From a virus (lineage: Duplodnaviria; Caudoviricetes): a DNA stretch of 64,000 bases. Position 1 is the first letter of the stretch; each line of letters begins with the position of its first letter. The notes beneath the pieces were generated by a model, which did no database searches, was not told the DNA's origin, and saw only the letters and a program-made list of their open reading frames with translations. Below are positions 6,546 to 36,609 of the stretch, in pieces. Where the stretch lies: IMG/VR virus record IMGVR_UViG_2775507102_000001, positions 274 to 64,273 of that record, one strand, 5' to 3'. The translations under genes and the position numbers were made by a program.

Positions 6546-6554
6546 GCGCCCCTC

Positions 6555-8248: not shown

Positions 8249-8251
8249 CGA

Positions 8252-16465: not shown

Positions 16466-16539
16466 GAAGGGTCTCCAGACATGCGAAGACCCCGCGGCAG
16501 GCGGGGTCGGGAAACAGGGTCCGGCGCGGGCCCAGCCGG

Positions 16540-16941
16540 TCAGGAGACCGGGTGACTGTAGATCTCGTAGACCGCCCCGACACGGCGGAGCGATGTGTTC
16601 TCGTAGGGGCGGACGCCAGGCGCGCTGATCGTGCCCACCCGGCTGACCACAGCCGCGTCCGTCGAGGTGCCACGCAGCTCGACGAGTAGCAGACCGCGGA
16701 TGGTCGCCGACAGGGCGATCGCCTCTGCGCGCGTCGCGGCGTACACGTCGATGTCGATGAAGGCCCGGTCGAGCCGGATCCCGTCATCACCGCCTGAGGG
16801 GATCCGCTGAACCTGCACCGTGGGCAGTTCGTTGAGGAGGTTGTTGTCCGTCTCGTCGCGGACGACGACGCCCGGGTCGAGGCGGGCGCGAAGCCACACG
16901 ATGACCTCCAACTCGACATCGACCGAGCCGACGGTGGCCAT
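16540..16941 (-). CDS. Tail terminator protein
   Basis: 133 aa; LPTVQVQRIPSGGDDG..LDRAFIDIDVYA; synteny. Confidence 0.8.
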   Translation of the reverse strand: MATVGSVDVELEVIVWLRARLDPGVVVRDETDNNLLNELPTVQVQRIPSGGDDGIRLDRAFIDIDVYAATRAEAIALSATIRGLLLVELRGTSTDAAVVSRVGTISAPGVRPYENTSLRRVGAVYEIYSHPVS

Positions 16942-17270
16942 CAGTCACCGCCCGAGGCGGCTGCGGCCCGCAGCAGCACGTGATGGGCCGGGACCCGCTC
17001 GGTGCCGTACTCCACCCAGCGGGCGTAGTAGGTCGGATTGCGCACGTAGGCGACGGCCCGGTCACGGCGACGGCCACCGCGCTTCGTGCTCGACACCTCC
17101 CATGCCCCCTTGTACTGACCAGGGTGGGGATCCCGAGCGGAGCCGACCGGGGACAGGGTCACGGCAGTGGCCTTGATGTCCTCCGCCCGGCGCACCAGTT
17201 CACCACGGATCATCTCCGACCGCAGCAGCTGGCCCACGCCCTTGCGCTTCATCTTGAATCGCGCAGCCAT
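16941..17270 (-). CDS. HK97 gp10-like neck protein
   Basis: YARWVEYGT motif; synteny. Confidence 0.8.
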   Translation of the reverse strand: MAARFKMKRKGVGQLLRSEMIRGELVRRAEDIKATAVTLSPVGSARDPHPGQYKGAWEVSSTKRGGRRRDRAVAYVRNPTYYARWVEYGTERVPAHHVLLRAAAASGGD

Positions 17271-17278
17271 GACGCCTC

Positions 17279-17641
17279 CTAGCCCGTGACCCGGTCCGCG
17301 GCGAACTGCACGACCCCGCGCAGCCCGGTGAAGGGATTGCAGCCCCAGTCGCCGGGCTCGCCCGTGATCTCACAAGTGACGCCGCGGATGCGAGCCTTGT
17401 CCGTGGTGTGGATGACTGTCCCGGCAGGGGCGTACACCGTCCAGCCGACGATGACAGTGTCCCTGCCCTGCTGCTCCGAGCCGCCCACCGCTGGGGTCTG
17501 CTCGCGCGGCGCGACGACGCAGCCGGGGACATCGAACGACTCATCCGGGCCGGGTAGCGGCTGCCCGCGCGGATCCCGCCCGGGCGAGGGGCCGGTGCGC
17601 ACGATCCGCACCGTCTCCCCGAACGGATACGGGGCGGGCAT
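17279..17641 (-). CDS. Head closure / head-to-tail stopper
   Basis: 120 aa; TVYAPAGTVIHTTDKARIRG...EITGEP. Confidence 0.75.
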   Translation of the reverse strand: MPAPYPFGETVRIVRTGPSPGRDPRGQPLPGPDESFDVPGCVVAPREQTPAVGGSEQQGRDTVIVGWTVYAPAGTVIHTTDKARIRGVTCEITGEPGDWGCNPFTGLRGVVQFAADRVTG

Positions 17642-18058
17642 CTACACCCACCCCCAGCCCGGCTCGTACTCCAGCGGCGGGCCATAGCCGTCGTCGACCG
17701 GGTAAGTCGGCGACGGATCCGCTGTAGCCGGAGTCGGATCCACAGTGAACGCGCCGCCTCGGCCGGCCGCGCTCTTCAGGGCGGCCTTGTCGGCCCGTGT
17801 CAGATACAGGCCGCCCGAGCCGGACGGGCGCTGCACCGACATGGGGCCGATCGTCTCGTAGGAAACCTGCTGCGGATTGACGTAGGCCCGGCCGGCGGCC
17901 GACAGGACCACTGCCGTGGCCTGGTTGGGAAGCGGCTTGACTACGGTCTCGCACAGAGCCACAGCCTGCTCGATCAGCAGATCCGCGCGAGGGCCGTCGA
18001 TTTCCATCATTCCCAGGTACAGGCCGAGCTGCTCCGCTGTCGGTGCCACGAACGCCAC
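17642..18058 (-). CDS. Head-to-tail adaptor
   Basis: 138 aa; AGRAYVNPQQVSYETIGPMS. Confidence 0.8.
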   Translation of the reverse strand: MAFVAPTAEQLGLYLGMMEIDGPRADLLIEQAVALCETVVKPLPNQATAVVLSAAGRAYVNPQQVSYETIGPMSVQRPSGSGGLYLTRADKAALKSAAGRGGAFTVDPTPATADPSPTYPVDDGYGPPLEYEPGWGWV

Positions 18059-18067
18059 AGCGACCTC

Positions 18068-19090
18068 CTAGGCCAGGGCCTCCACGGCGTCACACCAGGC
18101 GGCCAGTTCAGCGGTCGGATCCAGCTCGGCGCTGCGGGCCTTGGCCCGCTTCGACGCCAGCCGGTACTCGGCAGGCGCCGACAGCTTCCGAAGCACCGCC
18201 TCGTAGCCCGCCACGTCGTTGCGGTCGACGAACACCCCGGCCTCGCCGAGCGACTCGCACAGCCCCGGGGTGGGGTGGGCCACGACGGGGATGCCGGAGG
18301 CGAGCGCCTCACAACCGGCGCGGCCCCACGACTCGTAGGAGGACGGCATCAGCAGCACCTTCGTGCGGCCGTACACCTTCTCCCTCATGTCCTCGCCGCG
18401 GACGTGCTCGACTATCTCGACGTTCGGCAGATCGGGGAGGATCTGGTCGCCGTAGGCGCCGCGGACGGCGATGAACTGCTGGTCCGACATACGGCGGGCC
18501 AGCTTCTCCAGAACCCGGCCGCCCTTCTCCGGATTGCAGTTGACCAGCGTGATCGCCTTGCCCGGCTTCGTCGCGTATTCGTCGGCGAACACCGGTGGAC
18601 GCACGATCAGCGACTGCTCGGGGTGGACGGACTTCGGGTACTCGGCGAAGAACAACTCCGCCTCCCGCTCCATCCAGCGGCTGTTGTAGACCGCCAGCTT
18701 GGTGCCGCCGGCCGCCATGTCGCGGAACGTGGGCCGGTGGGTGTTGTGGCAGAGGACCACCACCGGCTTGTTGTAGCCGCGGGCCAGGGCGGTCGTGTGG
18801 GGCACGCACTCCAGGTGCGAGATGAGGACATTCGCCTTGCGGACCGCCGTGGGGAAGTCGAGCCTCGCTTCCAGCGGCACCACGCGGATGCCCCGGTACT
18901 CGTAGACCTTGCTGGCCTTGCCGTACCGGGACAGCCACACCGACACGTCGTGCCCGCGCTCCACCAGGGGCCGCAGCATGGACACGAGCATGTGCTCGGC
19001 GCCCGCGTTGTGCTCCGGCGGCATCGCATGCACCCGGGCCACGATGCTGAGCGCGGTCCCGCCCGGCGCGGAAGCCGGGACCGCCCCCAT
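18068..19090 (-). CDS. GT-B (family 4-like) glycosyltransferase inside head operon
   Basis: 340 aa; HNAGAEHM N-terminus, MPSSYESWGRAGCEALASGIPVVA (E-x7-E); ATG overlaps capsid stop. Confidence 0.9.
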   Translation of the reverse strand: MGAVPASAPGGTALSIVARVHAMPPEHNAGAEHMLVSMLRPLVERGHDVSVWLSRYGKASKVYEYRGIRVVPLEARLDFPTAVRKANVLISHLECVPHTTALARGYNKPVVVLCHNTHRPTFRDMAAGGTKLAVYNSRWMEREAELFFAEYPKSVHPEQSLIVRPPVFADEYATKPGKAITLVNCNPEKGGRVLEKLARRMSDQQFIAVRGAYGDQILPDLPNVEIVEHVRGEDMREKVYGRTKVLLMPSSYESWGRAGCEALASGIPVVAHPTPGLCESLGEAGVFVDRNDVAGYEAVLRKLSAPAEYRLASKRAKARSAELDPTAELAAWCDAVEALA

Positions 19091-20049
19091 CAGGAACCGC
19101 TCGGCGTGCCGGTGAACTTCACGAACGCCTCGGCGTCGCCCAGAACGAAGCCGTAGTACGCCTCCGCCAGGAGCAGCACCAGGTTCTCCTGGAAGGCGCT
19201 GTGCACGCCGCCGTCCTCGTCGATGTACGTCGCCTCACGCGACAGCTTCACCGAGATGTCCATGCCCACGCCGTAGGCGGCCTGCGAGAAGTCACCGCCG
19301 ATGGCGCGCAGCCCCGAATCCGCAGAGGTGGACTGGCGGCGCAGCTTGCCCGACACGCTGCGGGAGTAGGCGATCGGCTCGCCGATCAGCTCACCCTGCA
19401 GGGCTGCACCCGTGCCAGCGCCGGGCTGGCGGGTCGCCACGAACAGCGGCTCGCCCGTGGTGGAGGTGGCGGCCAGAAGCTTCGGCTTCAGCCGGTTGTC
19501 GGCGACGGTACCGGTGTAGTCCCAGTCGTCGTCGATGATCTCCTCCATGCCGGCGACGAAGTCACCCCAGATACCGCCCTGGTTCTGCGCCGTCGTCCCC
19601 AGCGACACCGCCTTCGAGGTGGCCGCGAAGTAGTCGGCGAAGGGACCGGTGCCGCCCTTCATGTTCTTGCCGTGGATCGTGGCCATGTCGAAAGCCCGCG
19701 CGAACGCCGTCGGGAGATCCCTCTGGAGCTGCGTCCACAGGCCGGCCGCGTTGGACTGGGCGACCTCCATCGACACCGGGATGAGTACGGCGATCTTCTT
19801 GCCGCTCATCTGCTTGACCTCGACACCGCCCGAGCTCAGCGGCTTGCGACCACCCTCAGACACCCAGTCCGCAGTCGGCACATCGAGCGGTACCGGGACC
19901 GCGGTGTTCGCCGTCATCGACAGCGGCACCCGCCGGGCCAGGCTCATGACCGCGGAGCCCTCGATTGACTTCTCGAAGATGGGGCCGACCAGCGTCTCCG
20001 GAAGGAAGATCGGGTCGATGGTGGACAGCTTGATGGGATTCGTCGCCAT
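19090..20049 (-). CDS. Major capsid protein (HK97 fold)
   Basis: 319 aa; ADWVSEGGRKP, KKIAVLIPVSME, GDFSQAAYG, SAFQENLVLLLAEAYYG. Confidence 0.92.
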   Translation of the reverse strand: MATNPIKLSTIDPIFLPETLVGPIFEKSIEGSAVMSLARRVPLSMTANTAVPVPLDVPTADWVSEGGRKPLSSGGVEVKQMSGKKIAVLIPVSMEVAQSNAAGLWTQLQRDLPTAFARAFDMATIHGKNMKGGTGPFADYFAATSKAVSLGTTAQNQGGIWGDFVAGMEEIIDDDWDYTGTVADNRLKPKLLAATSTTGEPLFVATRQPGAGTGAALQGELIGEPIAYSRSVSGKLRRQSTSADSGLRAIGGDFSQAAYGVGMDISVKLSREATYIDEDGGVHSAFQENLVLLLAEAYYGFVLGDAEAFVKFTGTPSGS

Positions 20050-21495: not shown

Positions 21496-22903
21496 CAGTC
21501 ACCTCTGCTGCGGCGGGCGGCTCGTCACCCTCGCTCATCGCGGCGAGCCGGTCCATGAGCTGGCGGCTGGCGGCCGTGTTGGCGCTACGGCGACGCTCGG
21601 CGGCTACCCGGCGGCGCTGATCCTCGCTCAGCCCGGCCATCTCCAATACGACATCACCGTCAGCCGGCAGGATGCCCGCATGAACGAGCTTCACCGCGGC
21701 GTCGGCCTGGGCCGCCACCGTCGGCGTTGCCGGGTTGCGCCACACGCACTCGATGCGGCGCGACTTATCCGGCGGCTCCCCATCGCGGAACCACAGCGCC
21801 AGCCTCATCGCGTCCCGGTGCGTCGCCGAGAAGCGGCGGATGCGCCGCTCCGCCTTCTTGATCTGCCCGTTGTCGGCAAAGCGGATCGCGTCAGCGCTCG
21901 CCGGGTTGTCGCTGGTGTAGCCGAGAACGTGAGGGGCCACCGACAACTGCGACGCCATGATGCGGGCGTAGAGGTCGATGATTTTCGTCTGGCCGGACGG
22001 ATCGTGGGCGGCGAACTGCCCCACCGTGGGCACTTCCCCGTTCTCGTCCCGCTCCAGCGCCAACACTCGGCCGATGTACGTCTCCCAGGCCGACTTGGCG
22101 TTGCCCTCCGCGTCCTGGAAGGCGCTCTCCGACACCCCCAGGATGTAGCGCTGCGGCGCCTGGAAGAACTCGGCGCCGACCTCGATACCCATCAGCCGCC
22201 GGCAAGCCGCATCCGTGATCGACATGACCTCAGGCGTGATCTCCGACTTACCGATGCGGTCCGCGGTGCGCTGCCGGTTCGCCATCCGCAGCACCGGCAC
22301 CATGCCCAGGTTGTGGATGTCCCGGTCGAAGACCTCCCAGCCGCCATCCACCTCGGCCGCGTACACCGTCTGATCCGGCAGATACAGGGTCGCGATACGC
22401 ACCCCGTCCTCGACCGACTCCCGCAGAGCAGCCGTCGCCAGACGCAGCCGGGCATCCCAGAACATCGTCATGTCCAGCGGCGACTCGAACGTGATCAGTG
22501 GTGGATCGCCCGCCTCGCCCGAGCCGACCGACACGTACTCGCGGCCGTAGGTCAGGGCGTCCAAGTGGGCCAACGACGCTTCGTCGTACAGGTCGTTCGA
22601 CTCGGCGATCTCCTCCAGATCGGACGGGTCCGTTCCGTCCGCCCAGCGGAACGCCTCCAGGTCGAGGCGCTGCTCCAGCGACTCGACACCGATGCGCGGC
22701 CAGCCGATCACCGTGTGCAGGCCCTTGAGCTGCGGCGGAATCGAGATCCCGAGGTCGCGAACGAGTTGCTCGCCGTTGAAATAGGCGTCGAGCAGCTCCA
22801 GCTTGAACCGCTGCGACAGCAGGTCCGAGCGCAGCGCCGTCAGCAGTTGCGCCTCGTCGCCCGACAGCGACAGGAGCGGCAGCTCGGGGATGGTCGCAGT
22901 CAT
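21473..22903 (-). CDS. Portal protein
   Basis: ATG 22903 overlaps terminase stop; 476 aa; VIGWPRIGVESLEQRL, GMVPVLRMANR, WRNPATPT. Confidence 0.9.
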   Translation of the reverse strand: MTATIPELPLLSLSGDEAQLLTALRSDLLSQRFKLELLDAYFNGEQLVRDLGISIPPQLKGLHTVIGWPRIGVESLEQRLDLEAFRWADGTDPSDLEEIAESNDLYDEASLAHLDALTYGREYVSVGSGEAGDPPLITFESPLDMTMFWDARLRLATAALRESVEDGVRIATLYLPDQTVYAAEVDGGWEVFDRDIHNLGMVPVLRMANRQRTADRIGKSEITPEVMSITDAACRRLMGIEVGAEFFQAPQRYILGVSESAFQDAEGNAKSAWETYIGRVLALERDENGEVPTVGQFAAHDPSGQTKIIDLYARIMASQLSVAPHVLGYTSDNPASADAIRFADNGQIKKAERRIRRFSATHRDAMRLALWFRDGEPPDKSRRIECVWRNPATPTVAAQADAAVKLVHAGILPADGDVVLEMAGLSEDQRRRVAAERRRSANTAASRQLMDRLAAMSEGDEPPAAAEVTGGDDGLG

Positions 22904-24639
22904 CGAAGCACCACCACCCGTCCCTTGCCTGGCGTGCCGCGCTTCGCCCACGCCGTCGAGTTCAACATCATCCGGCGCAGCATCCGCGCCCCGATCGCAC
23001 ACACCGCCAGGTCGATCTTGCGGGCCGACTCGCGATGCTCCTTACCGACCGTGTAGCCCCACTGATTCGTGCGGCGCCGGGCATTCGCCACGTGCTGGCG
23101 CAGCATCCGATGCCCGTCATGGAACAGTTGCCGCTCCAGCACGTCCCGGTAGAAGCGGTCCACAGCTTCCGTGAACGCCTGCTGGCGGCGCCGGTCACGC
23201 ATGTCCCACAGCACCGCGTGCCGGTTCGCGCCGCCCGTCACCGCCTTCAGCTTCAGCTTCTTGCCGTAGCGCTGCGCCCACGCGTCGATGTAGCCGTCCC
23301 AGTAGCGTTCGCCGTCCGCGTCGTCGTGACCGGCGCCCGGGTCGGCGAAGAACGCGATCGGCCGGTAGTCCGCGAACACCTGGTCCACCGTCCCGTCGAC
23401 CTCCTCGCGCGGCACCCGCCACGGCACGTCCTGCGGCCAGTTCGCCGGCCGCTGCCACACGCCCAGCGCGGTGACGAAGCCGTCCGACATGCGGCAGGCC
23501 GCCAGGCCGGTCGCGTCGTCGCTCTTGGAGCCGTCGAAGAACAGGACGATCTCGTCGCCCGGCCGAAGACCCGCATCCTCGCGGCGACAGGCATCCCACT
23601 CATACGGCGCCAGGAAGGCGTCCTCCGCGGCGACGATCTGGTTGAACCAGAAGCGCCGGGACCGGCTGGGCGGATTGCGGACATCAAGGATCGACGCCTT
23701 CAGCCGCTCAATGTCCAGCCAGATCGAATCCCCGCGGACGGCCCGCAGAGTCGGGACGATCCACTCCTCGGTCAACTTCGCCTCGGCCGGAGCCTCCAGG
23801 CTGTCGTAGAACAGGCCCGTGTCCACCACCCGGCCGGCCTCAGCCGACTCGAACGCCTCCCGGGTGCGCTCGGCGACACTGTCCTCGCCGGGTTCGTAGG
23901 CGTTGGTGTTCGCCAAGGTCCTCGACTGGCCGTCCGCGCTCTTGGTGGCGTTGCGCTCGATCACGGCGGCCATTTCGTGGCCCTGGTTCGACTCCAGCCA
24001 GTGGTGCGTCTCCCCCAGATTGACGGCCGTCGGCCGCCCACCCTCCAAGGCCCTCGGAGACGAGGTGACCGCCTCGATGCGAGCCCGGCCCTTGTCGGCG
24101 TAGATGATCTCCTTGCCGAGGTCGATGCGGTACTCCTCGATCGCCCGCTTCGACAGGATCGACGGGAACAGCGTCATCGTGTTCCGCGTCTGATCCTGCG
24201 ACACCGCCGCGATCTGCACCCACGCCGCCGGATGCTGAACCCCCAGCGGTTGCCCCGCCGGAACGCCCCACTCGTTACCCTCGTCGGCGACCTGGCCGAA
24301 GCGGCACGGGCCGACAAACTCGAACGCCGACCAGGTAGCGATCAGGGGGTCTTTGCCCCAGCCCTTCAGCCGCTGGATCACGCCATCCCGCCACAGGAAC
24401 CGGTTCGTCACAGGATCCATCGCGTACCACCACAGCGTCAGCCGAGCCTGCTCGGCGGTATACCGCCAGGGCGCCCCGACGTAGTGCTGCAGGTACGTCG
24501 CCGTCCACGCCAGACAGTGCCAGCCCAGCGTGTACTCGGGCAGGATGAACCGCCCGTCCGGGCCACGCTTCCACGTCGGCCCGATTGTGAACGGCTCGAC
24601 GACCTCCGGAACAGCCTCGTCAGCCACCTGCGAGGTCAC
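22900..24639 (-). CDS. terL: Terminase large subunit
   Basis: 579 aa; QRLKGWGKD (Walker A-like), QIAAVSQDQT, ETHHW, FDGSKSDDAT, KIDLAVC. Confidence 0.93.
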   Translation of the reverse strand: MTSQVADEAVPEVVEPFTIGPTWKRGPDGRFILPEYTLGWHCLAWTATYLQHYVGAPWRYTAEQARLTLWWYAMDPVTNRFLWRDGVIQRLKGWGKDPLIATWSAFEFVGPCRFGQVADEGNEWGVPAGQPLGVQHPAAWVQIAAVSQDQTRNTMTLFPSILSKRAIEEYRIDLGKEIIYADKGRARIEAVTSSPRALEGGRPTAVNLGETHHWLESNQGHEMAAVIERNATKSADGQSRTLANTNAYEPGEDSVAERTREAFESAEAGRVVDTGLFYDSLEAPAEAKLTEEWIVPTLRAVRGDSIWLDIERLKASILDVRNPPSRSRRFWFNQIVAAEDAFLAPYEWDACRREDAGLRPGDEIVLFFDGSKSDDATGLAACRMSDGFVTALGVWQRPANWPQDVPWRVPREEVDGTVDQVFADYRPIAFFADPGAGHDDADGERYWDGYIDAWAQRYGKKLKLKAVTGGANRHAVLWDMRDRRRQQAFTEAVDRFYRDVLERQLFHDGHRMLRQHVANARRRTNQWGYTVGKEHRESARKIDLAVCAIGARMLRRMMLNSTAWAKRGTPGKGRVVVLR

Positions 24640-25054
24640 GGTATGCGTCCAGCGGCTTCACCGACGCCAGCTGCGGCCCGGCTGGCTTCCGCTCCAGCTC
24701 GATCCGCGCCCGACGCCGGTCCCCCTCGGTCGTCAGAAGGCGGGCCATGACGCTGTCCAGCGCGCTGACGTACTGACCGTTTGGCGGCCGGTCCGACGAC
24801 AGGCCGCGCGACATCAGCTCCGCGGCGTACCGAGCCATCGCCCAGTCCGACGGCTGATAGAAGACGGCCTGACCGGACTCCTGCAGAGACAGATACCAGT
24901 CCGTGGCGATCGGATGCCACAGCGGATCCGGGTCCGGCAGATCCGGCAGATCCAGCGGCGGCCCAGACGGGGCTTGCGCCAGCTTCGGCCCGTCGTCCTT
25001 GTTGCGACGACGACGCGCTTCCGAGCGCTCCGGTATGGGTCCACGAGTGCCCAT
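24620..25054 (-). CDS. terS: Terminase small subunit
   Basis: MGTRGPIPERSEARRRRNK...PPLDLPD.....WHPIATDWY...LLTTEGDRRRARIE. Confidence 0.85.
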   Translation of the reverse strand: MGTRGPIPERSEARRRRNKDDGPKLAQAPSGPPLDLPDLPDPDPLWHPIATDWYLSLQESGQAVFYQPSDWAMARYAAELMSRGLSSDRPPNGQYVSALDSVMARLLTTEGDRRRARIELERKPAGPQLASVKPLDAYRDLAGG

Positions 25055-25139
25055 GACGACCTCCAGGGTCAGGCACGCCACCAGGGCGCGCGGGGCAGAT
25101 GCCTTGCGCCGGCCGCGCCAGCCACCCGGGCAGGCGCAG

Positions 25140-25943: not shown

Positions 25944-26237
25944 TCACCTCAGCCCGGGATGTTGTTCGGGGGGCCGTGTTCGTCCTGGCCGGGGGTTGTT
26001 GCGCTGAGCGTCGTTGCCTTCACGGCTGGACTTGTGGTCGTGGCAGGGGCCGCAGACGCCTTGGAGTCCTTGCTCGCTGTGGTCGTCGGCCTTGGCCACG
26101 ATGTGGTCGCAGTGGGTCGACGGCCGCACGCCGCACAGGGTGCAGATGGGGTTGCGTTCGAGGATGCGGGCCCGGATCTTCGCCCAGCCGGACGGCAGCC
26201 GGGCCTTGCGGTCCGAGCCTTGCCAGCCGCCGCTCAT
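25944..26237 (-). CDS. HNH endonuclease (packaging-associated type)
   Basis: 97 aa; CTLC...STHCDHIV...DDHS...LQGVCGPCHDHKS. Confidence 0.9.
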   Translation of the reverse strand: MSGGWQGSDRKARLPSGWAKIRARILERNPICTLCGVRPSTHCDHIVAKADDHSEQGLQGVCGPCHDHKSSREGNDAQRNNPRPGRTRPPEQHPGLR

Positions 26238-26885: not shown

Positions 26886-27161
26886 TTAGGGCTGTTCGAT
26901 GAGGTGCCAGACGAGTTGTCCGCCGGGCGCGATGGTGGTGCCTCGGTAGTGGGTGCCGTCGGGGATGGGCTGTCCGGTGCCGAAGACGCGGTAGCGCCGA
27001 GCGGGGAGGTCTTCGCGCTGCCACGCCCAGAACTCGACGGTCCATGGGTCCCGGCAGTCGACGTGCAGCGGGGTGCTACATCCGGCGATCTCGTGCCACC
27101 GGTCATCGACGGGGACCTCGTAGCGGAAGATCTGGCCGGTCACGTCCGCGACCACCACCAC
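26886..27161 (-). CDS. DUF7352-like protein
   Basis: IFRYEVPVDD...LHV......VEFWA......RRYRVFGTGQPIP....Y.GT......LVWHLIE. Confidence 0.7.
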   Translation of the reverse strand: MVVVADVTGQIFRYEVPVDDRWHEIAGCSTPLHVDCRDPWTVEFWAWQREDLPARRYRVFGTGQPIPDGTHYRGTTIAPGGQLVWHLIEQP

Positions 27162-27682
27162 ACGCCGAGCGTCTCGCCCCGCATCGACTGGACCTGCCCG
27201 CCGAGTTCGGCGAGCACGTCGTCCATATCGCTGGCGTCCCAGTGATGGAGGTGTTCTTCGTGCGGGTTGCCGTCGACTTCACCCTGCGGCGCTTCGACGA
27301 TGGGCAAGCTGACGAGGATGTTCCACGCTCCGGCCGTCTCCGCCTTGCGCAGGAGGTCGACGGCGTCGCCGCGGGCCATGTGCTCCAGGACGTCGCCGAA
27401 GATGACGAGGTCCCGGTGGAAGAGATGCTCGGGTGCGACGCGGGCGTCGAGGTTGTGGATCTCGTCGTACATGTCCTTGCGCTTGGCCGTGTTCTTCAGC
27501 CCGTAGCGCCGGATGTACGGCTTGTAGATCTCGATGGCGGTCCACCAGACGCCGTGGTGCACGGGCCGGAACAGCTTGGCGTAGGTACCTTCGCCCGGGC
27601 CTACGTCGCACACGGTGTCGGGCTTCTGCTGCTCGAAGATGCGGAGGGACCAGTCCTTGCCCTCGGCGATGCTGGTGGGCAT
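27140..27682 (-). CDS. Class I SAM-dependent methyltransferase (non-DNA type)
   Basis: 180 aa; CDVGPGEGTYA motif I, LVIFGDVLEHM; no NPPY or PC DNA-MTase motif. Confidence 0.85.
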   Translation of the reverse strand: MPTSIAEGKDWSLRIFEQQKPDTVCDVGPGEGTYAKLFRPVHHGVWWTAIEIYKPYIRRYGLKNTAKRKDMYDEIHNLDARVAPEHLFHRDLVIFGDVLEHMARGDAVDLLRKAETAGAWNILVSLPIVEAPQGEVDGNPHEEHLHHWDASDMDDVLAELGGQVQSMRGETLGVWWWSRT

Positions 27683-27691
27683 GGCGGTCTC

Positions 27692-27856
27692 CTACATCGG
27701 GACGATGGTGATCTGCGGCTGGGTGACGACGAGCTTGCGGCCGTACCGGGCGAGGACGGCTTCGAGTTCGGCGCGGCACTCTTCGGTCTTCCGTTGCTCG
27801 TCTTCAGCGACGATGCGGCGGGCTTCGTCGACAGGGTTGGTCTTCTCGTCGGCCAT
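27692..27856 (-). CDS. Small coiled-coil protein, possible fibre assembly chaperone (54 aa, not in ORF track)
   Basis: MADEKTNPVDEARRIVAEDEQRKTEECRAELEAVLARYGRKLVVTQPQITIVPM, directly after spike gene. Confidence 0.65.
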   Translation of the reverse strand: MADEKTNPVDEARRIVAEDEQRKTEECRAELEAVLARYGRKLVVTQPQITIVPM

Positions 27857-27880
27857 GGGCGCGGGCCTTTCGGATGCGGG

Positions 27881-29068
27881 TTAGGTGGTGCTGTCGGTGA
27901 TGAGCCCGATCGTGGCGAGCTGCGTGAGGAGGCTGGCGAGTGCGGCGTTGCCGCCTCGGGAGCCGGTCACGGTGCGCCGGGTGGTGTCGAAGACGACCCC
28001 GGCCGCGTTGCGGACCTTGAAAACGCCACCCTGGCTGTAGGCGATGACGCCGCCGGTCGGGTTCGTGGTGGGCGCCGTGGTGGCGTCCTTCATCGAGATG
28101 ACCGCGCCGCCGGAGCCGCCCAGGTCGCTGCTGGTCGAGCCGAGCTGCAGACTGTTGGTGTAGAAGCTGATCGCCCGGTGCACGATCGCCCCGCTGCTGC
28201 CAACCTCCAGCGTCGCCGTGCCCGCAGAGGTTTTCGTCTGGAACAGCGGCGAAGTGGTGGCCGCGATGCCGGTGACGACGAGGCCGGGCGTGGTGGTGTC
28301 GGGCTGCTTCACTTCGAGTGACGCTTCGGGCGCTTCACCGATGTCCATGCCGACGCCGGCCCGTCCGGTGCCTTTGACGACGAAGTCGTCGCGCCCGTTG
28401 TTGCGGAGGACGATCAGGTTGCCGGTGGTGGCGCCTTCGGTCGCGGTGAGGAAGATGCCTTGTGCGGCGGTGCCCGGCTTGCCGTTGCGCTGTAGGTCGA
28501 TGCTGAGCGCGGACGCGCCTGCATCGTCCGTGGCCCCTGCCCCGCCGTTCTTGTGGGTGACCTTCAGCGTTCCGCGGGCGGTCTCGTGCCCGGTCAGATA
28601 CATCGCCGAGTCGGTCGGCTTGTCCGAGATCACGTTCAGGGCGACACCGGAGGTGCCCGAGGTGGCGGCCTGATAGATCGTGACCACATGTTCGGTCGTC
28701 GACGTCGTCTTGAAGAACGCTGCCCGCACGGCCAGGTCGGCGAACAGGCCTCCGGTGAGCGTTCCGCCGGCGAGCGGCAGGAACTTGGCATCGGCGTAGG
28801 CCCGGTCGCCGTGCGGGTCGGTCGCGGCGACGTGCGCGTCGACCTTCGCCGTGGCGTCTGCGGCGGCTGTCGCGATCGCCGCCGCCTGCGCGGTTGCTGC
28901 GGAGCCGGCCGGGTCAGCACCTACGATCTCGGCGGTGAGCGTGACGCCGCCGGTGCGGCCGTTGACGCTGGATACGAGCCCGGCGTTGACGTGGACGATG
29001 CGGCCGGTCTGCCCGCCATTGACGGTGATGGAGTCGACGGGGCGTTCGCCGATGACGCGGATCCTCAC
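27881..29068 (-). CDS. Spike/fibre protein with phage hyaluronate lyase (HylP)-like triple beta-helix
   Basis: ALNVISD...SAMYLTGHETARGTLKVTH...ASALSIDL...GTAAQGIF...TTGNLI.LRN...DFVV parallels Streptococcus phage HylP as I recall it. Confidence 0.75.
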   Translation of the reverse strand: MRIRVIGERPVDSITVNGGQTGRIVHVNAGLVSSVNGRTGGVTLTAEIVGADPAGSAATAQAAAIATAAADATAKVDAHVAATDPHGDRAYADAKFLPLAGGTLTGGLFADLAVRAAFFKTTSTTEHVVTIYQAATSGTSGVALNVISDKPTDSAMYLTGHETARGTLKVTHKNGGAGATDDAGASALSIDLQRNGKPGTAAQGIFLTATEGATTGNLIVLRNNGRDDFVVKGTGRAGVGMDIGEAPEASLEVKQPDTTTPGLVVTGIAATTSPLFQTKTSAGTATLEVGSSGAIVHRAISFYTNSLQLGSTSSDLGGSGGAVISMKDATTAPTTNPTGGVIAYSQGGVFKVRNAAGVVFDTTRRTVTGSRGGNAALASLLTQLATIGLITDSTT

Positions 29069-30177
29069 CGGGTCACCTCCGGGGAGACGACTGCCCGGCC
29101 GTTGAGCAGCCGCACGACGGTGGGCCCGTTGACGACTTCCAGGTCCCAGCGTCCGTTGCGGGTCAGCGTGCCGGTGACCGCCGCGGGGACTGCGACGCGG
29201 ATCGTGCCGCCGATGATCTCCAGGTAGGGCGTGAGGTCGAGGAGGAGTTCACCGGCCTCGGATGCCTCCGACCGGATCTGCGAACGGGCTGTCCAGCCCT
29301 CCCAGGTGAAGTCCGGATCGTCGTCGACGACGAACTCCTGCACGAACGTGGCGCCTTGCTCGATGTACAGGTCCCAGTCTCCGGCGGACAACTCGGCCAC
29401 CTCCGGGATCTCCGTGTCGGCGGATACGGCGGTGAGCCTCGCCTCGCCGGACAGGGCGGCTGCCACGTGCGCGGACAGGACGGGCGCCGCAGTGAGGCTG
29501 CTGTCCGCACCGAGTGCGGCTGTGGCGCTGGCCGCTACGAGGGCGGCGGCACCGAGTGTCGTCTGCGCGGACAGGTCGGCGGATGCCGTCCACACGGCCC
29601 CGTTGGAGAGCGTGTTGACCAGATCGAACTCCGCGTAGTCGGCGGTGCCGGAGTCGCGGTGAGCGCTCATGTCGAGCGCGCACGCCTCCGCATCAGCAAC
29701 GATCCACGCCGGGGTGGCGAGAGTCCGTCTGGTCGTCCACGTGCTGCCGTCCGGGCTGGTGTCCCAAGTGAGGTTCACCCCGTCTTCGACGAGCCGCAGG
29801 AACAGGTGCGCGACCGGATCGTAGGTGAGCTCGACGGCCGCATCGTCCCAGTAGTCCGTCTCGGACACGCACCGCAGGAGCCCGCTCACGGCGTTCATCG
29901 AGAACCCGACCCGCGTACCAGCGACGGCACCCTGGACGGTGACCGCGAAGTACGCCTCAGCCGCGGCCCCGCCAGCGGCTGGCGCGGTGGGCACCTGCAC
30001 GAAGAAGCTCGCGCCGGCCAGCGTCCACGCGTAGCCGGTCTGACAGCCCGCATAGTCGGTAGTGCATGGCACGCGGGCCCGGCCGCCGACGACCGCCGTG
30101 CCGCCGTAGGAGTTGCCCCACTCGGGCCCGAGCGACCCCGCGTTGAAATTGTCGATCAAAGTGGAGAGGCTCGGCAT
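29065..30177 (-). CDS. Virion appendage protein: lectin-like N-domain, Ala-rich shaft, C-terminal BppU-like beta-sandwich
   Basis: 370 aa; C-terminal LYIEQGATF...WEGWTARSQIR...LDLT...RWDLEV....VVRLLNGRAVVSPEVTR. Confidence 0.7.
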   Translation of the reverse strand: MPSLSTLIDNFNAGSLGPEWGNSYGGTAVVGGRARVPCTTDYAGCQTGYAWTLAGASFFVQVPTAPAAGGAAAEAYFAVTVQGAVAGTRVGFSMNAVSGLLRCVSETDYWDDAAVELTYDPVAHLFLRLVEDGVNLTWDTSPDGSTWTTRRTLATPAWIVADAEACALDMSAHRDSGTADYAEFDLVNTLSNGAVWTASADLSAQTTLGAAALVAASATAALGADSSLTAAPVLSAHVAAALSGEARLTAVSADTEIPEVAELSAGDWDLYIEQGATFVQEFVVDDDPDFTWEGWTARSQIRSEASEAGELLLDLTPYLEIIGGTIRVAVPAAVTGTLTRNGRWDLEVVNGPTVVRLLNGRAVVSPEVTR

Positions 30178-30189
30178 GCGGGCCTCCGA

Positions 30190-30576
30190 TCACGCCAGGG
30201 ACAGAGTGAGCTGCCCCGCGGAAAGCACCAGCTCATCCCCCGCAGACACGGTGCGGGACGCAGTAAGCGGCCCATACCAGAGCCTCACCGGTGTCCCCGC
30301 CGAGTCCCAGATCTCCACACCGACGACGGTCGCGGCCGGCATACCCGACCAGACGAGGTCGGCCGAGTTGCTGGTGGCCCCGGCAACGGCTGCGGCGACA
30401 GCGAGATCCTGCCGCGCGTAGGAGCCACCGGTCACCTCGGTGCCCGCCGCCGTGTCCGTGCCGTTGGCTGTCACCAGCGCGACCTTCAGCGGGGTTGTGG
30501 GGCGGGTCGGGGTGCCGACGCCGAGGATCCAGTCGAGCGTTAGGTTTTCGGCGGTGTTGCTGAGGTTGTCGGCCAT
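30190..30576 (-). CDS. Small fibre/appendage structural protein
   Basis: 128 aa; LKVALVTANGTDTAAGTEVTGGSYARQ. Confidence 0.75.
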   Translation of the reverse strand: MADNLSNTAENLTLDWILGVGTPTRPTTPLKVALVTANGTDTAAGTEVTGGSYARQDLAVAAAVAGATSNSADLVWSGMPAATVVGVEIWDSAGTPVRLWYGPLTASRTVSAGDELVLSAGQLTLSLA

Positions 30577-30586
30577 GGTGCCTCCG

Positions 30587-32638
30587 TCAGTCGGTGCGGA
30601 TGATGTCGGAGACGGGCAGGACTTTGATGCCGCGGGCCGCGATCCCGTCCATGATCGCGTTGAAGTCGGCGAGACTGCACTGGTTCGTGGTCGTCGCCGC
30701 GCCGCTGGTGATCTCGTGGAAGGTCAGCTGGAGCCACGAGCCGGTCGACGCGCACCGGTCGAGCGGCCCACCGGCGGCGAGCATGGTCGACGGGTAGGCG
30801 GGGCTCGCCGCGCCGGCCATCGAGCCGATGCCCGTGATGCTCCGCATCCTGTAGGCCATGCCGGGCGGGACCGTCTCGGCGGCGTTGTCGGCTGAGCTGA
30901 TGCCGCGGCCGGTGCTGAAGTACCGGGCGGTGAGCTGGTCGATCGGGTCGCCGTCGGTGGTGGGCCCGAACCACCCGCCGGGGTAGGCGAAATGCTCCGA
31001 CGGGAAGCCGTTGGCGACCATCCAGGCGCGCAGAATCCGCAGCTCATCCAGCACGGCCTGCGTCGACAGGGTCGTGTACTTGGCGTTGTGCGCGGCGACC
31101 GTCGCGGCGTGCCCGGCGATCTCCCAGCCGCTGAAGTCCTGCATGCTGCGCATCTGCGCCTTGGTCAGGTAGACGCCGCTGGTGTCGACGACGTCAGCGA
31201 TCGTGTAGATCGTGCCGCGGTAGTTGAGCGAGTCCATCTTGGGCCGGGCCAGGGACCAGACCGAGGAGTAGCAGTCGTCGAACGTGATCGACACCGCTCC
31301 GCCGGGGAAGTCCGTCACCGTGCCGTCGATGAGCTCGACGGATTGCAGGTGGACGGTGGCCGCCCCGGTCCCCTTGTCGACGACCTGAAACGCCATGTCG
31401 GTGAAGCCGGACGTCGCCGACGGCACGCCGGTCGGACCGACGGTGTACGTGCCGGTTGGCGACCGGACACCGGACCACTGGAGCGTGACCGTGACCCATT
31501 CGCCGCTCTGCACCTGGTTCTGCGCCGTGGCGGAGTGCGTGAACACCCGCCAGCTGTAGCTGTTCGCGAGGGTGCTGCTGCCGACCAGGAAGTTTATTTG
31601 GTTGATCCTGGAGACGTCCGCCACTCGGAAGACGAGCCGGATCGCCTTGCCGGTCAGATCGAACTGCGGCGCCCCGTAGCGGCGGATGTTCGCGACCGCG
31701 CCTGTGCCCGTGGTGGTCATGGCGAACGACTGCGTGCCCTTCACGAACTGGCTGGTGTCGTTTGCGTTCGACGAGGCGACGCCAGAGCCGGACGTCGACC
31801 ATCCGTGGTTGGCCTGCATCAGCGTCACCGTGCTCGACGCATCCCGCCACGTCGGCCGGGATGTATGCGGCAGCAGCGGCAGCGCGAACCCGGAGGCGGT
31901 GAGCCGGCCGGTGACCTGGGCATTGTTGGTGACGTTCAGGGCGGACAGCCAGGCGGTGCCCTGCTCGATCGCCGAAACCCGGTTGAGGGCGTCGTTGAGG
32001 TAACCGTCGATCGCACTGACCGTGCTCCCCAACGCGAACTTGCTGTCGGCCCAGGAGCGGTCGCCGTGCGGATCCGCAGCGGCCACATGCCCGGCGACGG
32101 CTACTGTGGCCGTCCCCGCCGGGTCGGCGCCGACATCGGCGGCACTGAGCGACACGGTGCCCTGCTCACCGTTGACGGACTGGACCAGGTTCGTAGCCGG
32201 GTCGCCCGGATCACCCTGCGGACCTTCCGGACCTTCGGGGCCAGCCGGTCCAGCAGGCCCGGCGGGGCCTGTCACGACGACGTACTCGCCCTCCGACGGC
32301 GCGGTCGGCGCCACATCGGCCAGGTCGACAGCCGGCGCCGCAGCCGGGAGGGACAGCGGGTAGGAGCGGCCCGGCGTGTCGTACCAGCGTTCCGTCACCC
32401 GGTACGTCCACCCGACCGGTGTCACATCCGGATCGTCCGTGGCCAGCAGGCTGACAGTGAACTGGCCGTTGTTGTCGAGAACGACCTCGACGTCGCCGAT
32501 GACCAGCGTGCCGTGCGCCGCCGAGGTGAGTACCTCAGGCTCCGGGCGGAAGACGAGCCGGCCGCTGTACGGCGTGCCGTTGGGGTGCAGGTAGGTGCCG
32601 GTGACCGTGACGGTGGAGAGTCCGGGAGGCAGGGCCAC
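30587..32638 (-). CDS. Spike protein with N-terminal attachment domain, collagen hinge and C-terminal polysaccharide deacetylase (CE4/NodB)
   Basis: 683 aa; [22 protein letters not shown]; VSITFDD, EIAGH, HFAYPGG, LTFHEI. Confidence 0.82.
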   Translation of the reverse strand: MALPPGLSTVTVTGTYLHPNGTPYSGRLVFRPEPEVLTSAAHGTLVIGDVEVVLDNNGQFTVSLLATDDPDVTPVGWTYRVTERWYDTPGRSYPLSLPAAAPAVDLADVAPTAPSEGEYVVVTGPAGPAGPAGPEGPEGPQGDPGDPATNLVQSVNGEQGTVSLSAADVGADPAGTATVAVAGHVAAADPHGDRSWADSKFALGSTVSAIDGYLNDALNRVSAIEQGTAWLSALNVTNNAQVTGRLTASGFALPLLPHTSRPTWRDASSTVTLMQANHGWSTSGSGVASSNANDTSQFVKGTQSFAMTTTGTGAVANIRRYGAPQFDLTGKAIRLVFRVADVSRINQINFLVGSSTLANSYSWRVFTHSATAQNQVQSGEWVTVTLQWSGVRSPTGTYTVGPTGVPSATSGFTDMAFQVVDKGTGAATVHLQSVELIDGTVTDFPGGAVSITFDDCYSSVWSLARPKMDSLNYRGTIYTIADVVDTSGVYLTKAQMRSMQDFSGWEIAGHAATVAAHNAKYTTLSTQAVLDELRILRAWMVANGFPSEHFAYPGGWFGPTTDGDPIDQLTARYFSTGRGISSADNAAETVPPGMAYRMRSITGIGSMAGAASPAYPSTMLAAGGPLDRCASTGSWLQLTFHEITSGAATTTNQCSLADFNAIMDGIAARGIKVLPVSDIIRTD

Positions 32639-32701: not shown

Positions 32702-32926
32702 TCAGGCGGCCTTGGGTCGGCCCGGCTTCACCTTGGCTGCGGCCTCGATGGTCGGCAGGTGATAGAGCGGCTGGTCACCGTCGAGCGGAACTCGCTCGAT
32801 CTTGCCGCGGGTTTCCCAGACGCGGATCGTGCCGGGCTTCACGCCGGCCACTCGGGCGGCTTCCCAGATGTCGCCGAGGTCGCGCTGATACAGCTCGTAC
32901 AGCGCAGGGTTGGAGAAGGTCGGCAC
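32702..32926 (-). CDS. MerR-like HTH DNA-binding protein
   Basis: GGAGG RBS before GTG 32926; IWEAARVAGVKPGTIRVWETRGKI; 74 aa. Confidence 0.8.
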   Translation of the reverse strand: MPTFSNPALYELYQRDLGDIWEAARVAGVKPGTIRVWETRGKIERVPLDGDQPLYHLPTIEAAAKVKPGRPKAA

Positions 32927-32946
32927 GGCACCTCCCCGGAATGCGC

Positions 32947-32976
32947 AAACCCCCGCCGGATAGCTCACGGCGGGGG
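32947..32976 (-). terminator. Intrinsic terminator in leader of late operon
   Basis: 9-bp stem CCCCCGCCG-N9-CGGCGGGGG then TTT on minus strand. Confidence 0.65.
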
Positions 32977-33018
32977 CTCTGGGTGCTCTTGCGACGGGTG
33001 TTCCACCATCGACTTCGG

Positions 33019-33047
33019 AGATTACAGATTCAGCGATCAACTAGCAA
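33019..33047 (-). promoter_or_regulatory. Housekeeping-sigma-type promoter heading the late operon
   Basis: TTGCTA (33047-33042) - N17 - TAATCT (33024-33019). Confidence 0.65.
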
Positions 33048-34506: not shown

Positions 34507-36609
34507 TCACAGGCCGATGTCGTAGCGGTCGAGGACCGCCCGGCGCACCGCGGTGAGCGGGTAGACGGACACCTTGCTGCCGCTGACTTCCTGCCGCCGC
34601 TTCTCCTCGTCGGTGCGCGGCACGAGCACGGCCAGCCGGTCGGCAGTCACCGGATGGCCGGCTGCGGCAAGCCCTTCGGTGACCCGGGCAGTGGGCAGCA
34701 TCTCGACGCCTTCCGGGTACAGGCCGAACAGGGTGGCGAGGATCTCGCCGTCCTCACCTGCGGCGCGCAGCCGGTCAAGCGGGCCCAGCGGCAGCGTCCC
34801 GGCCTCCTGTCGCAGCGAGTAGGCGCGGCCCAGGATTGCGGCGACCTCGTCGTCGTCGTAGTAGTCGCCGCGGACCAGCTCCGGCTCGGCGCCTTCGCCG
34901 TCCATGTAGATGCCCACGCCGCGCTGCGACTTGAGGATGTCCTGGGCGTTGTGCCCGGCGGAGGCGTAGCCCTGTCCGAGGATCGTGTCGGAGGCCTGCG
35001 GGGTGAGGCAGCGCATCGCCCAGCGGATGGAGAGGATGTCGCGGATCCCGGTGGGTACGGAATCGCTGTCGGGCTTCTGTGTGGCGGCGAGGCTGATGAT
35101 GCCGAGCGCCCGGCCCTGCTGGACGATCAGCCGCAGCAGCCGTTCCATCTCCTGCCGTGTCTTCTGGTCGGCGGCGGCACCGTAGGACGACCACTCGTCG
35201 ACGAGGAGAACGGCCAAGCAGACCCGCGGGTCGACGGCGGCCATCGCCTCGGTCAGCTTGCGGGAGCCGTGCTCCTTGGCGAGCGCCCGCCGCTCCTTGA
35301 TCTCGACGTCCCACATGTACTGCAGGATGTCGAGGAGCTTGTCGGGGTCGCCGTCGGTGTCGTACATGGTGGCGATCGGCTCGAACGGGGTGATGTCGGC
35401 GCCGGCCTTGCCGTCGGCGAGGTACATGCGCACGGTCGGGTCGAGCGCGGCGGCGAGCAGCAGGTCGTTGGCTGCGGCGGACTTGCCGGAGCCGGGCTCG
35501 CCACCGAAGAGTCCGGACCGCTCGACCCACGAGGTGATGACTTCCTCGCCGCGCAGGTTGACGCCCATCCGGATGGGCTGCCACAGGTTGACCCGCTCGG
35601 CGTCGAGCAGCGGGCCCCGGGTCGGCTTGGTGGAGAACGGCAGCTTCAGCGACACCCGCAGGTGGATGGTGTCTTCGCGGTCGCCGCGGGTCTGGTGGAC
35701 CTGCTGCACGGACACGCCGAAGCCGTTGGCGATGCCCTCGCGCGCTCCGAGCGCCTTCTTAGCGGGGGTGCCAGACGGCAGCTGGAACACGACCTGCCAG
35801 GCCTTGCCGTCGGCGGTGAGCGTGCAGGGGGTGCTGAGGCGCAGGGTGTCGTCGGCGGCGATGACGCGGGCGTCGCGGTACACCCGGTTGACCATGTCGT
35901 CGGTCATCCGGTCCCCGTCGCCGATCTTCGCGTCGCGGTCGGTGTACAGCTCCCCCGCCGTGGTGCGCCGCCCGATCAGGGCGAACGTGGCCAGGGTTGC
36001 GGCCGTGGCGGCGAGCCCGCCGGGGGTGCCGAGCAGTTGCAGGCTCGCTCCTTCAACTCCGGCGATCGGAGTGAGGGCAGCAACGCCCCGCACGGCCCGC
36101 CGCATGCGGGCGTCCCGCTGCGCCGACCGGTACTTGCTCATCGCCGACGCCGAGTCGGCGAACGCGCCCTCCATCTCCCGGCGCCGCTTCTCCTTCTCCT
36201 TGCCGGGCATCAGCCGCCGGTCGTGCGCCCACTTCGCAGCCTTGTAATCGCGCTGCGTCTGCTGCACCTCGTACCGGGCGGCGAGGACCTGCGCGCCCTC
36301 GGTGCCCTGCACCCACAGGACGGTGCGGCGGATCCCGCGACCGATCTGCGAGGCGTGCCCGTGCTCTGTGGCCTGCCGACGCAGCCACTTGCGGAAGCCG
36401 CGGACGGTGTTGACGCGGCCGACCTCGGCGCGGCTCTTCCACCCGGTGCGGGTCTTCGTCCAGGCGGGGGTGAGGGGGGTGTCGCCCATCAGGTCGACGG
36501 ACGTCGTCTGCTTCTCGACGGGCGCCTCGCCGGGGGCGTTCAGGTAGCCGCCGACGATGCGCTCCCACTCCGGGTCGGGGGTGCTGCTGGGGGTCGTCTC
36601 GATGCTCAC
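34507..36609 (-). CDS. traB: TraB-like FtsK/SpoIIIE conjugative DNA translocase
   Basis: 700 aa; N-terminal TM region, Walker A GEPGSGKS, Walker B LLVDEW, GRALGI...ATQKP, C-terminal wHTH-sized domain. Confidence 0.88.
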   Translation of the reverse strand: MSIETTPSSTPDPEWERIVGGYLNAPGEAPVEKQTTSVDLMGDTPLTPAWTKTRTGWKSRAEVGRVNTVRGFRKWLRRQATEHGHASQIGRGIRRTVLWVQGTEGAQVLAARYEVQQTQRDYKAAKWAHDRRLMPGKEKEKRRREMEGAFADSASAMSKYRSAQRDARMRRAVRGVAALTPIAGVEGASLQLLGTPGGLAATAATLATFALIGRRTTAGELYTDRDAKIGDGDRMTDDMVNRVYRDARVIAADDTLRLSTPCTLTADGKAWQVVFQLPSGTPAKKALGAREGIANGFGVSVQQVHQTRGDREDTIHLRVSLKLPFSTKPTRGPLLDAERVNLWQPIRMGVNLRGEEVITSWVERSGLFGGEPGSGKSAAANDLLLAAALDPTVRMYLADGKAGADITPFEPIATMYDTDGDPDKLLDILQYMWDVEIKERRALAKEHGSRKLTEAMAAVDPRVCLAVLLVDEWSSYGAAADQKTRQEMERLLRLIVQQGRALGIISLAATQKPDSDSVPTGIRDILSIRWAMRCLTPQASDTILGQGYASAGHNAQDILKSQRGVGIYMDGEGAEPELVRGDYYDDDEVAAILGRAYSLRQEAGTLPLGPLDRLRAAGEDGEILATLFGLYPEGVEMLPTARVTEGLAAAGHPVTADRLAVLVPRTDEEKRRQEVSGSKVSVYPLTAVRRAVLDRYDIGL

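Follow-up and report, generated by a model that had tools for sequence, protein, structure and literature searches.

A conserved modular cassette with glycan-active heads as the probable displaced side-fibre apparatus of a temperate Streptomyces siphophage

The locus described here raises the question of why genes for fibre-type proteins with enzymatic heads should open a late operon rather than follow the tail-tip genes, and what structure their products could build. It lies in a window of 64,000 nucleotides (positions 274 to 64,273 of the IMG/VR virus record IMGVR_UViG_2775507102_000001; all coordinates below are those of this window), which has a GC content of about 69%, is part of an 8.8-Mb genome of Streptomyces type and carries a long prophage on the minus strand. 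The cassette in question spans positions 27692-32638 of the minus strand and consists, in the order of transcription, of the open reading frames (ORFs) g683, g128, g370, g395 and g54, all found in place, with coding-type GC contents at third codon positions (GC3) of 0.85-0.91, spacings of 9-24 nt and an overlap of the g370 stop with the g395 start as GTGA. It is located about 2.6 kb upstream of the TerS gene, from which an HNH gene separates it, and the tail-tip genes are about 17 kb away. A reading made from the sequence alone (the sequence-only reading) had placed these five genes before the terminase and about 17 kb from the tail tip, with which the gene order agrees, and had taken them to encode fibre-type virion proteins with glycan-active heads, which is supported. 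The cassette is real, conserved and modular, and it probably represents the displaced side-fibre apparatus, with receptor-binding and depolymerase functions, of a temperate VWB-like siphophage of Streptomyces, borne on the tail as a composite structure.

Conservation and modularity became apparent from a comparison set of 12 Streptomyces loci with g370 homologues of 61-84% identity. The genes g128 and g370 are adjacent in all 12, a homologue of the g395 N-terminus always opens the next gene, which begins at the g370 stop, and in every locus with a sufficiently long flank the complete set precedes the HNH and terminase genes, the terminases being only 31-96% identical. Judging from this fixed synteny combined with divergent terminases, the cassette is a mobile unit holding a constant place within a mosaic group of phages. 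The N-terminal latch of g395 is conserved in every one of these loci irrespective of the head, and the heads at this position are of the PL16/HylP type in eight loci, a pectate-lyase-type beta-helix of about 1000 residues in two and a protein of about 260 residues in the remaining two, where a separate NlpC/P60-containing gene comes next. In these last two loci (L013:11893-13437 and L021:11917-13464) the latch-bearing protein of about 260 residues and the NlpC/P60 protein of about 515 residues stand instead of the PL16 fibre, which suggests a peptidoglycan-cutting alternative in the same slot. In a large protein collection, residues 1-100 of g395 have 161 homologues, whose heads are PL16, beta-helix, GDSL or short, and residues 1-215 of g683 have 179, among them phiC31 gp49, phiBT1 gp49 and the TG1 minor tail protein, with heads of the CE4, GDSL/SGNH, GDPD (glycerophosphodiester phosphodiesterase) or pectate-lyase beta-helix type or with none. 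That relatives retain the N-terminal parts and exchange the heads is in agreement with the sequence-only reading, which had pointed to swappable catalytic heads. In a sample of 301 genomes of Streptomyces species, three yielded full-length g370 and 20 its N-terminal domain alone.

The lyase-headed fibre protein and its small partner are laid out as follows.

27881..29068, minus strand: g395, a 395-residue fibre protein with a PL16 (HylP/Hyal_Sk-like) head (PF07212, PDB 4UFQ)
28979..29068, minus strand: N-terminal latch of g395, residues 1-30, conserved in related loci
28781..28978, minus strand: copy 2 of the motif shared with g683, residues 31-96 of g395 (BLASTP to g683)
28175..28747, minus strand: PL16 triple-stranded beta-helix region of g395, residues 108-298, aligned to residues 19-205 of 4UFQ
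27692..27856, minus strand: g54, a small acidic protein and candidate head-specific helper, without a family match

The presence of two enzyme heads, noted from the translations, was upheld by family matches in both cases. The match of g395 to PF07212 (HylP/PL16) reaches 156.2 bits against a cut-off of 27 (E 8.6e-46), the best PDB match of residues 108-298 is Hyal_Sk of Streptomyces koganeiensis (4UFQ, E 2.2e-43), and the streptococcal enzymes HylP1, HylP2 and HylP3 follow with E values of 1e-16 to 1e-19. As in HylP, the PL16 triple-stranded beta-helix domain of g395 sits within a phage fibre with a stalk in front, although the N-terminal part differs. Hyal_Sk, in contrast, is known only as an isolated helix domain and has been called the first bacterial PL16 enzyme, consisting of the beta-helix only (review PMC11669647). 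Since this beta-helix-only enzyme matches the g395 head at E 2e-43, the 'bacterial' hyaluronidases of Streptomyces may be prophage-fibre heads. The natural substrate of g395 is probably not hyaluronan, because the host makes none, and would more probably be another uronic-acid glycopolymer. A gene for g54 follows all eight HylP-type heads and none of the four other heads in the comparison set, which is a lead rather than a statistic, because the loci are related; its restriction to HylP-type heads fits the idea of a head-specific helper, the product of 27692 having been put forward as a chaperone in the sequence-only reading.

The second enzyme stands at the start of the cassette, on a longer fibre protein with the following parts.

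30587..32638, minus strand: g683, a 683-residue fibre protein with a CE4 deacetylase head (ORF, phrog_14726, PF01522)
32261..32638, minus strand: N-terminal beta-sandwich attachment domain, residues 1-126 (predicted local distance difference test, pLDDT, 93-97)
32198..32269, minus strand: collagen-like Gly-X-Y stalk of 8 triplets, residues 124-147 (from the translation; weak PF01391 match)
32036..32188, minus strand: copy 1 of the motif shared with g395, residues 151-201 (BLASTP to g395)
31319..31855, minus strand: beta-sandwich resembling a carbohydrate-binding module (CBM), residues 262-440 (AlphaFold2 (AF2) model, VIA)
30590..31306, minus strand: CE4 polysaccharide deacetylase head, residues 445-683 (PF01522)

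Residues 1-126 match the tail-fibre family phrog_14726 (E 3.8e-35), and this domain occurs in tail fibre or minor tail proteins of 36 cultured Streptomyces phages, with 50% identity in the best match, Samy, whose gp28 gene closes the tail and lysis block, and 35% in phiC31 (gp49, E 7e-19); phiBT1 gp49 has it as well. The isolated domain yielded nothing useful against Pfam at E up to 10, and the sequence of g683 had no match in the PDB. The CBM-like domain finds CBM4/11/29/30 and the CBM-like domains of Klebsiella and CBA120 tailspikes at VIA Z of about 11, and the head matches PF01522 with 28.5 bits against a cut-off of 23.1. Together these two domains, the C-terminal 60% of the protein, are 27-33% identical to Gordonia and Arthrobacter phage proteins annotated as 'minor tail protein / glucosaminyl deacetylase'. 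All these actinophage fibre genes, including those of phiC31, phiBT1 and Samy, come after the tape measure and tail-tip genes, whereas g683 precedes the terminase. Canonical CE4 enzymes carry metal ligands in an H(S/T)xxH motif (motif 2) and have RxPY as motif 3. The first CE4 motif, TFDD, which provides the catalytic base and a metal ligand, is present in g683 at 452-455, and D454, D455, H510, H517, Y552-P553 and H641 are invariant in 12 orthologues; H510-x6-H517 and AYPGG (without Arg), although likewise invariant, differ from the canonical motifs, and the model of the CE4 domain is of low confidence.

Between the two enzyme-bearing genes lie those for the parts that would organize the second fibre.

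30190..30576, minus strand: g128, a chain-fibre bead protein of Gp80 type (PF23140, PDB 8JOU)
29602..30177, minus strand: N-terminal GH16/ConA-like jelly-roll of g370, residues 1-192 (AF2, pLDDT about 90)
29392..29601, minus strand: three central 20-residue repeats of g370, candidate 'rope', residues 193-262 (pLDDT below 50)
29068..29385, minus strand: C-terminal LtfC/p132-like collar domain of g370, residues 265-370 (Foldseek)

Both genes had been regarded as adaptors. For g370 (29065 in the sequence-only reading) this looks right, as its C-terminal domain matches the T5/DT57C collar protein, to which the lateral fibres are anchored, whereas g128 (30190) is a fibre bead of Gp80 type and not an adaptor, being a full-length member of PF23140, residues 4-126 covering positions 1-128 of the 128-position profile (92.4 bits against 27, E 3.7e-26), with a weak match to the solved gp80 of GP4 (8JOU, E 1e-3). 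In the podophages GP4, VP1 and A1002, Gp80-type dimers are strung by beta-augmentation on a 'rope' segment to form chain-like tail fibres (PMC13730344). No Gp80 homologue was found in cultured actinophages. The AF2 model of g370 shows two confident domains joined by a low-confidence centre, and its sequence had no match in the PDB. The canonical catalytic motif of GH16 enzymes is ExDxxE. The N-terminal domain resembles GH16 glucanases, GH43 C-terminal domains and L-type lectins (VIA Z 17-18), and is read as a probable sugar-binding domain because that motif was not seen in its sequence. The C-terminal domain has as its top Foldseek matches 8hqz_Q/T and 7qg9_J/L (DT57C LtfC and T5 p132; E 1e-6 to 4.5e-6, TMt 0.55-0.59), falls with a language-model match of 0.95 into the LtfC-like cluster of the Atlas, and belongs to a protein of which some close homologues carry a precomputed match to the LtfC family PF23926. 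LtfC forms a dodecameric collar holding the lateral tail fibres, and short N-terminal strands of LtfA extend its sheets by beta-augmentation (PMC10713586). As with LtfA, g395, translationally coupled to g370, has a short strand-rich N-terminus that is conserved and a distal part that is variable. A branched fibre design is plausible here, in a phage whose host, unlike that of T5 and DT57C, is Gram-positive.

The central repeats, of the type xSAHAxAxLxAxSxLTAxx, number three in all 35 homologues examined while their sequence varies, and as in the nozzle-rope protein of A1002 they are flanked by folded domains, one of them Ig-like; this segment gave only noise against the PDB and nothing useful against Pfam at E up to 10. 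When pairwise identities across 13 loci were compared in a Mantel test, g128 was found to track the repeat region (r 0.84, p 5e-5, a value that overstates independence as the loci amount to about 3-4 lineages; partial r 0.81 with the N-terminal domain removed) and to track neither the N-terminal domain (r 0.38) nor the C-terminal domain (r 0.00). From linkage alone the reverse would be expected, because the N-terminal domain separates g128 from the repeats on the DNA. As evidence for a bead-on-rope arrangement it is supportive, not conclusive, because of the small number of lineages. In two unrelated phages the gene after a Gp80 homologue starts with or contains strand-rich repeats and stands among fibre or baseplate genes. 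As a further candidate for a rope of GP4 type, gp54 of CRP-4, which adjoins a podophage Gp80 homologue, had no match in the PDB. GP4, VP1 and A1002 differ from the present case in that a siphophage is concerned here, three repeats are present against 5-11 dimer sites, the rope lies outside a nozzle and the binding is a predicted one.

The motif common to the two enzyme-bearing proteins, on which much of the initial interpretation turned, was confirmed as such: residues 151-201 of g683 and 31-96 of g395 align at E 2e-11 in BLASTP, with 34 of 66 positions identical and one gap of 15 residues, and the consensus in the g683 copy reads LVxSVNGxxGxVxLxAxDVGADPAG ... HVAAxDPHGDR, a helix following it. 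It is restricted to these two proteins within the 8.8-Mb genome, and its SVNGxxGxV core is invariant in 13 of 13 aligned sequences, among which are all 12 proteins that occupy the g395 position, irrespective of the head. If it were a docking segment, both enzymes would plug into one adaptor and form one branched, two-headed fibre, and docking by beta-strands is indeed the attachment mode of LtfA, FtbP and the Gp80 dimers. Such a common anchor is nevertheless quite improbable, as the copy in g683 lies within the protein and follows both the attachment domain and the collagen stalk, and the orthologue P0020 of locus L014, with 71% identity in the N-terminal part and 81% in the head, belongs to the same kind of cassette and has about 33 residues in place of residues 146-254, without the motif, which is an optional element of the family. 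In loci L015 and L018 the MerR gene lies directly before g128, so that the g683-type gene is optional and the latch-bearing proteins occur there without any such partner. Moreover, the two halves (SVNGxxGxVxL and DPH) occur apart in relatives, where DPH units may recur at intervals of 20 residues and the start of the motif ranges from residue 20 to residue 394.

A profile of the aligned N-termini matched two stretches of the side-fibre protein FtbO of monocin, a Listeria F-type tailocin, at E 1.1e-4, and this was the only kind of solved protein matched; the isolated motif gave nothing useful against Pfam (E up to 10), and tblastn with its 51 residues had no match at E 0.05 in 50,697 phage records. 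The stalk repeats of FtbO carry the unit VxSVNGxxGxVxLxAxDV, with VxSVNGKxGxVxLxAxDV in both segments, and end in HxH iron sites, which are replaced in the present motif by H-x5-DPH. In FtbO the trimeric stalk units stand behind an N-terminal latch, and it is this latch that docks (PMC11830787). Being internal in g683, missing in the L014 orthologue and FtbO-like, the motif is read as a trimeric stalk unit that tends to stand behind an attachment element and would not itself be that element, although its first half may be part of the docking region in the g395 family. More generally, the monocin proteins FtbN, FtbO and FtbP provide a parallel of trimeric latch-stalk-head fibres docking on an adaptor by sheet complementation, with the difference that their heads are binding domains and the heads here enzymes. 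In P0040 and P0078, homologues of the g683 N-terminal part, three to five 'DPH' units are spaced exactly 20 residues apart; this series looks like a repeating, possibly metal-binding unit of a fibre shaft, for which no Pfam family was found.

On this basis, two fibre systems would be encoded, one by g683 and a composite one by g128, g370, g395 and g54. The first would be a g683 trimer with, in order, the attachment domain, the collagen stalk, a stalk cassette of motif and coiled coil, the CBM-like domain and the CE4 head. In the second, the LtfC-like domain of g370 would serve as collar or adaptor on the tail, into which a g395 trimer would plug its conserved latch by strand donation, as LtfA does into LtfC of DT57C, thereby displaying the PL16 lyase head, whose folding or assembly g54 may aid. 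The three repeats of 20 residues in g370 would act as a short rope binding g128 dimers, in the manner of the chain-like fibres of GP4 and A1002, and this rope would end in the GH16/ConA-like sugar-binding domain. At hyphae or spores, the heads would bind, deacetylate or cleave surface glycopolymers and thus allow the tail tip to reach the envelope, candidate substrates being, for the lyase, teichuronic acid or similar polymers of uronic acids and, for the CE4 enzyme, N-acetylated glycans. A bolder proposal, that a single adaptor fuses a T5-type collar domain, a podophage-type bead-on-rope and a lectin-like domain and holds an exchangeable enzyme-headed trimer, with the corollary that Streptomyces PL16 hyaluronidases are prophage-fibre heads with a wall glycopolymer as natural substrate, is made tentatively and is itself doubtful.

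Where on the virion such fibres would sit bears on the most serious competitor of the tail-borne arrangement, namely that one or both systems form an appendage of the head-tail connector, comparable to the neck fibres of A-1(L), the whiskers of T4 or the neck passage structures of lactococcal phages, and have a role in a first, reversible contact or in sensing the environment, not in action at the tail tip. The cassette adjoins packaging and head genes, not tail genes, and residues 9-123 of g683 superpose on gp82N (Z 10.4, root-mean-square deviation 2.3 A over 98 residues), by which the A-1(L) neck fibre is held on the neck ring (PMC10966104). However, a small beta-sandwich is a common fold, the identity is only 16%, and the g683 N-terminal domain is encoded in the tail module in the 36 cultured Streptomyces phages. 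Fibres carried on tails are also where the LtfC-like fold, the Gp80 family and the FtbO-like stalk are known from, and a further point for the tail is that the tail-tip block of this prophage includes no long fibre. A neck location of the apparatus is hence judged unlikely, attachment at the tail being about twice as likely as at the neck as far as the site alone is concerned, and the two systems need not attach at one site. The genomic position is unusual, not new, as the podophage CRP-4 has its Gp80-type fibre genes before the terminase as well. Bxb1 gp6, followed up as a literature lead for minor tail genes in such a position, gave nothing usable. That the products are not virion parts, and are soluble late enzymes that loosen hyphal matrix or wall for the release and spread of progeny, or morons serving the lysogen, would be in line with the description of Hyal_Sk, which is closely related to the g395 head, as a bacterial enzyme of 21.6 kDa and not a virion protein, and with the location of the genes outside the tail block. 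This is very improbable, given that each enzyme is fused to an attachment domain, collagen, stalk unit or latch, that a fibre bead and a collar-like adaptor flank the enzymes, and that the genes, closely spaced and all in one orientation, open the structural operon.

Several points weigh against the tail-borne composite itself. The cassette is known here from genes and predicted single-chain models, and the likeness of the g683 attachment domain to a neck-attachment domain pulls in the other direction. The match of g370 to PF23926 reaches 17.3 bits (E 0.0074), below the Pfam cut-off of 27; the LtfC-like part is the C-terminal third of a 370-residue protein that also bears the jelly-roll and the repeats, whereas LtfC of T5 is a stand-alone protein of about 140 residues; and T5 LtfC surrounds a tube-like ring (TTMP), of which no homologue was recognised in this prophage. 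The low-pLDDT repeats of g370 could equally be a plain flexible linker, and the co-variation with g128 draws on the few lineages mentioned. On the side of the enzymes, the absence of hyaluronan from Streptomyces and the atypical second CE4 motif (H-x6-H) of g683 count in the same sense, as does the unsettled state of the catalytic residues of PL16 enzymes, which are not the same in HylP1 as in HylP2/3 (review PMC11669647).

In minus-strand order, the cassette is embedded among the following genes.

34507-36609: TraB/FtsK-like gene, before the cassette
32702-33040: gene of MerR type with a helix-turn-helix (HTH) domain, just before the cassette
27140-27682: S-adenosylmethionine (SAM)-methyltransferase-like gene, between cassette and HNH gene
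26886-27161: DUF7352 gene, between cassette and HNH gene
25944-26237: HNH gene, preceded by small ORFs
24620-25081: TerS
22900-24639: TerL
10489-15018: tape measure gene (1509 residues)
5925-10486: tail-tip block of four genes, followed by an amidase endolysin gene

After TerL come the portal, head genes with the capsid, the major tail protein and the tape measure, and the tail-tip block has its four genes only, without a long fibre. A scan for promoters and terminators detected no terminator within the cassette and no sigma-70-type promoter, which bears neither way on where the operon starts. The closest cultured phage by tail-tip proteins is Streptomyces phage VWB (52-55% identity for the proteins of 744 and 364 residues). 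The cassette is absent from VWB, whose pre-terminase ORFs gp24-27 are unrelated (gp24 = DUF2637), and the notion of a general VWB-type feature was consequently dropped. The VWB region 16326-19846 holds large ORFs and the 54-residue gp27 before the terminase, the equal length of gp27 and g54 being a coincidence as far as BLAST shows. The methyltransferase and DUF7352 genes recur in about half of the related loci and for this reason are read as a variable accessory block outside the fibres, and PADLOC found nothing for g54 and the small downstream genes. The TraB/FtsK-like gene encodes about 700 residues a few kb upstream of the cassette; ORFs of about this length occupy the matching place in several related loci (L010:3482-5578, L014:3705-5783 and L018:6348-8450). 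The tape measure protein has a weak NlpC/P60 match near residues 1311-1330 (E 4e-4, below the cut-off), and that of VWB is annotated 'endolysin'. Beside the capsid region, a 340-residue protein (18068-19090) matches phrog_26352 strongly and a glycosyltransferase PHROG weakly, and could be a glycosylator of virion proteins.

How Streptomyces phages recognise their receptors is poorly understood, and databases list the products of this cassette as 'hypothetical'. The design principle of a conserved attachment part with exchangeable enzymatic heads is already known, while this combination of parts is undescribed for any solved or characterised phage. Here the conserved scaffold consists of g128, g370 and the g395 latch, and the exchanged heads are PL16 and pectate-lyase-like beta-helix domains at the g395 position and CE4, GDSL and GDPD domains on the g683-type fibre. 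The catalogue of these heads is a list of enzymes aimed at Streptomyces surface glycopolymers and offers a handle for the prediction of host range, and for a hyaluronidase used in biotechnology an origin from a prophage fibre is suggested. Annotation limited to the region downstream of the tape measure gene misses receptor-binding genes of this kind. Chain fibres of Gp80 type and collars of LtfC type, so far known from podophages and T5-like coliphages, would be extended to a siphophage of a Gram-positive host, and if the bolder proposal made above is true, the result would be a side-fibre that processes glycans in three ways, for which no solved virion has so far provided an example.

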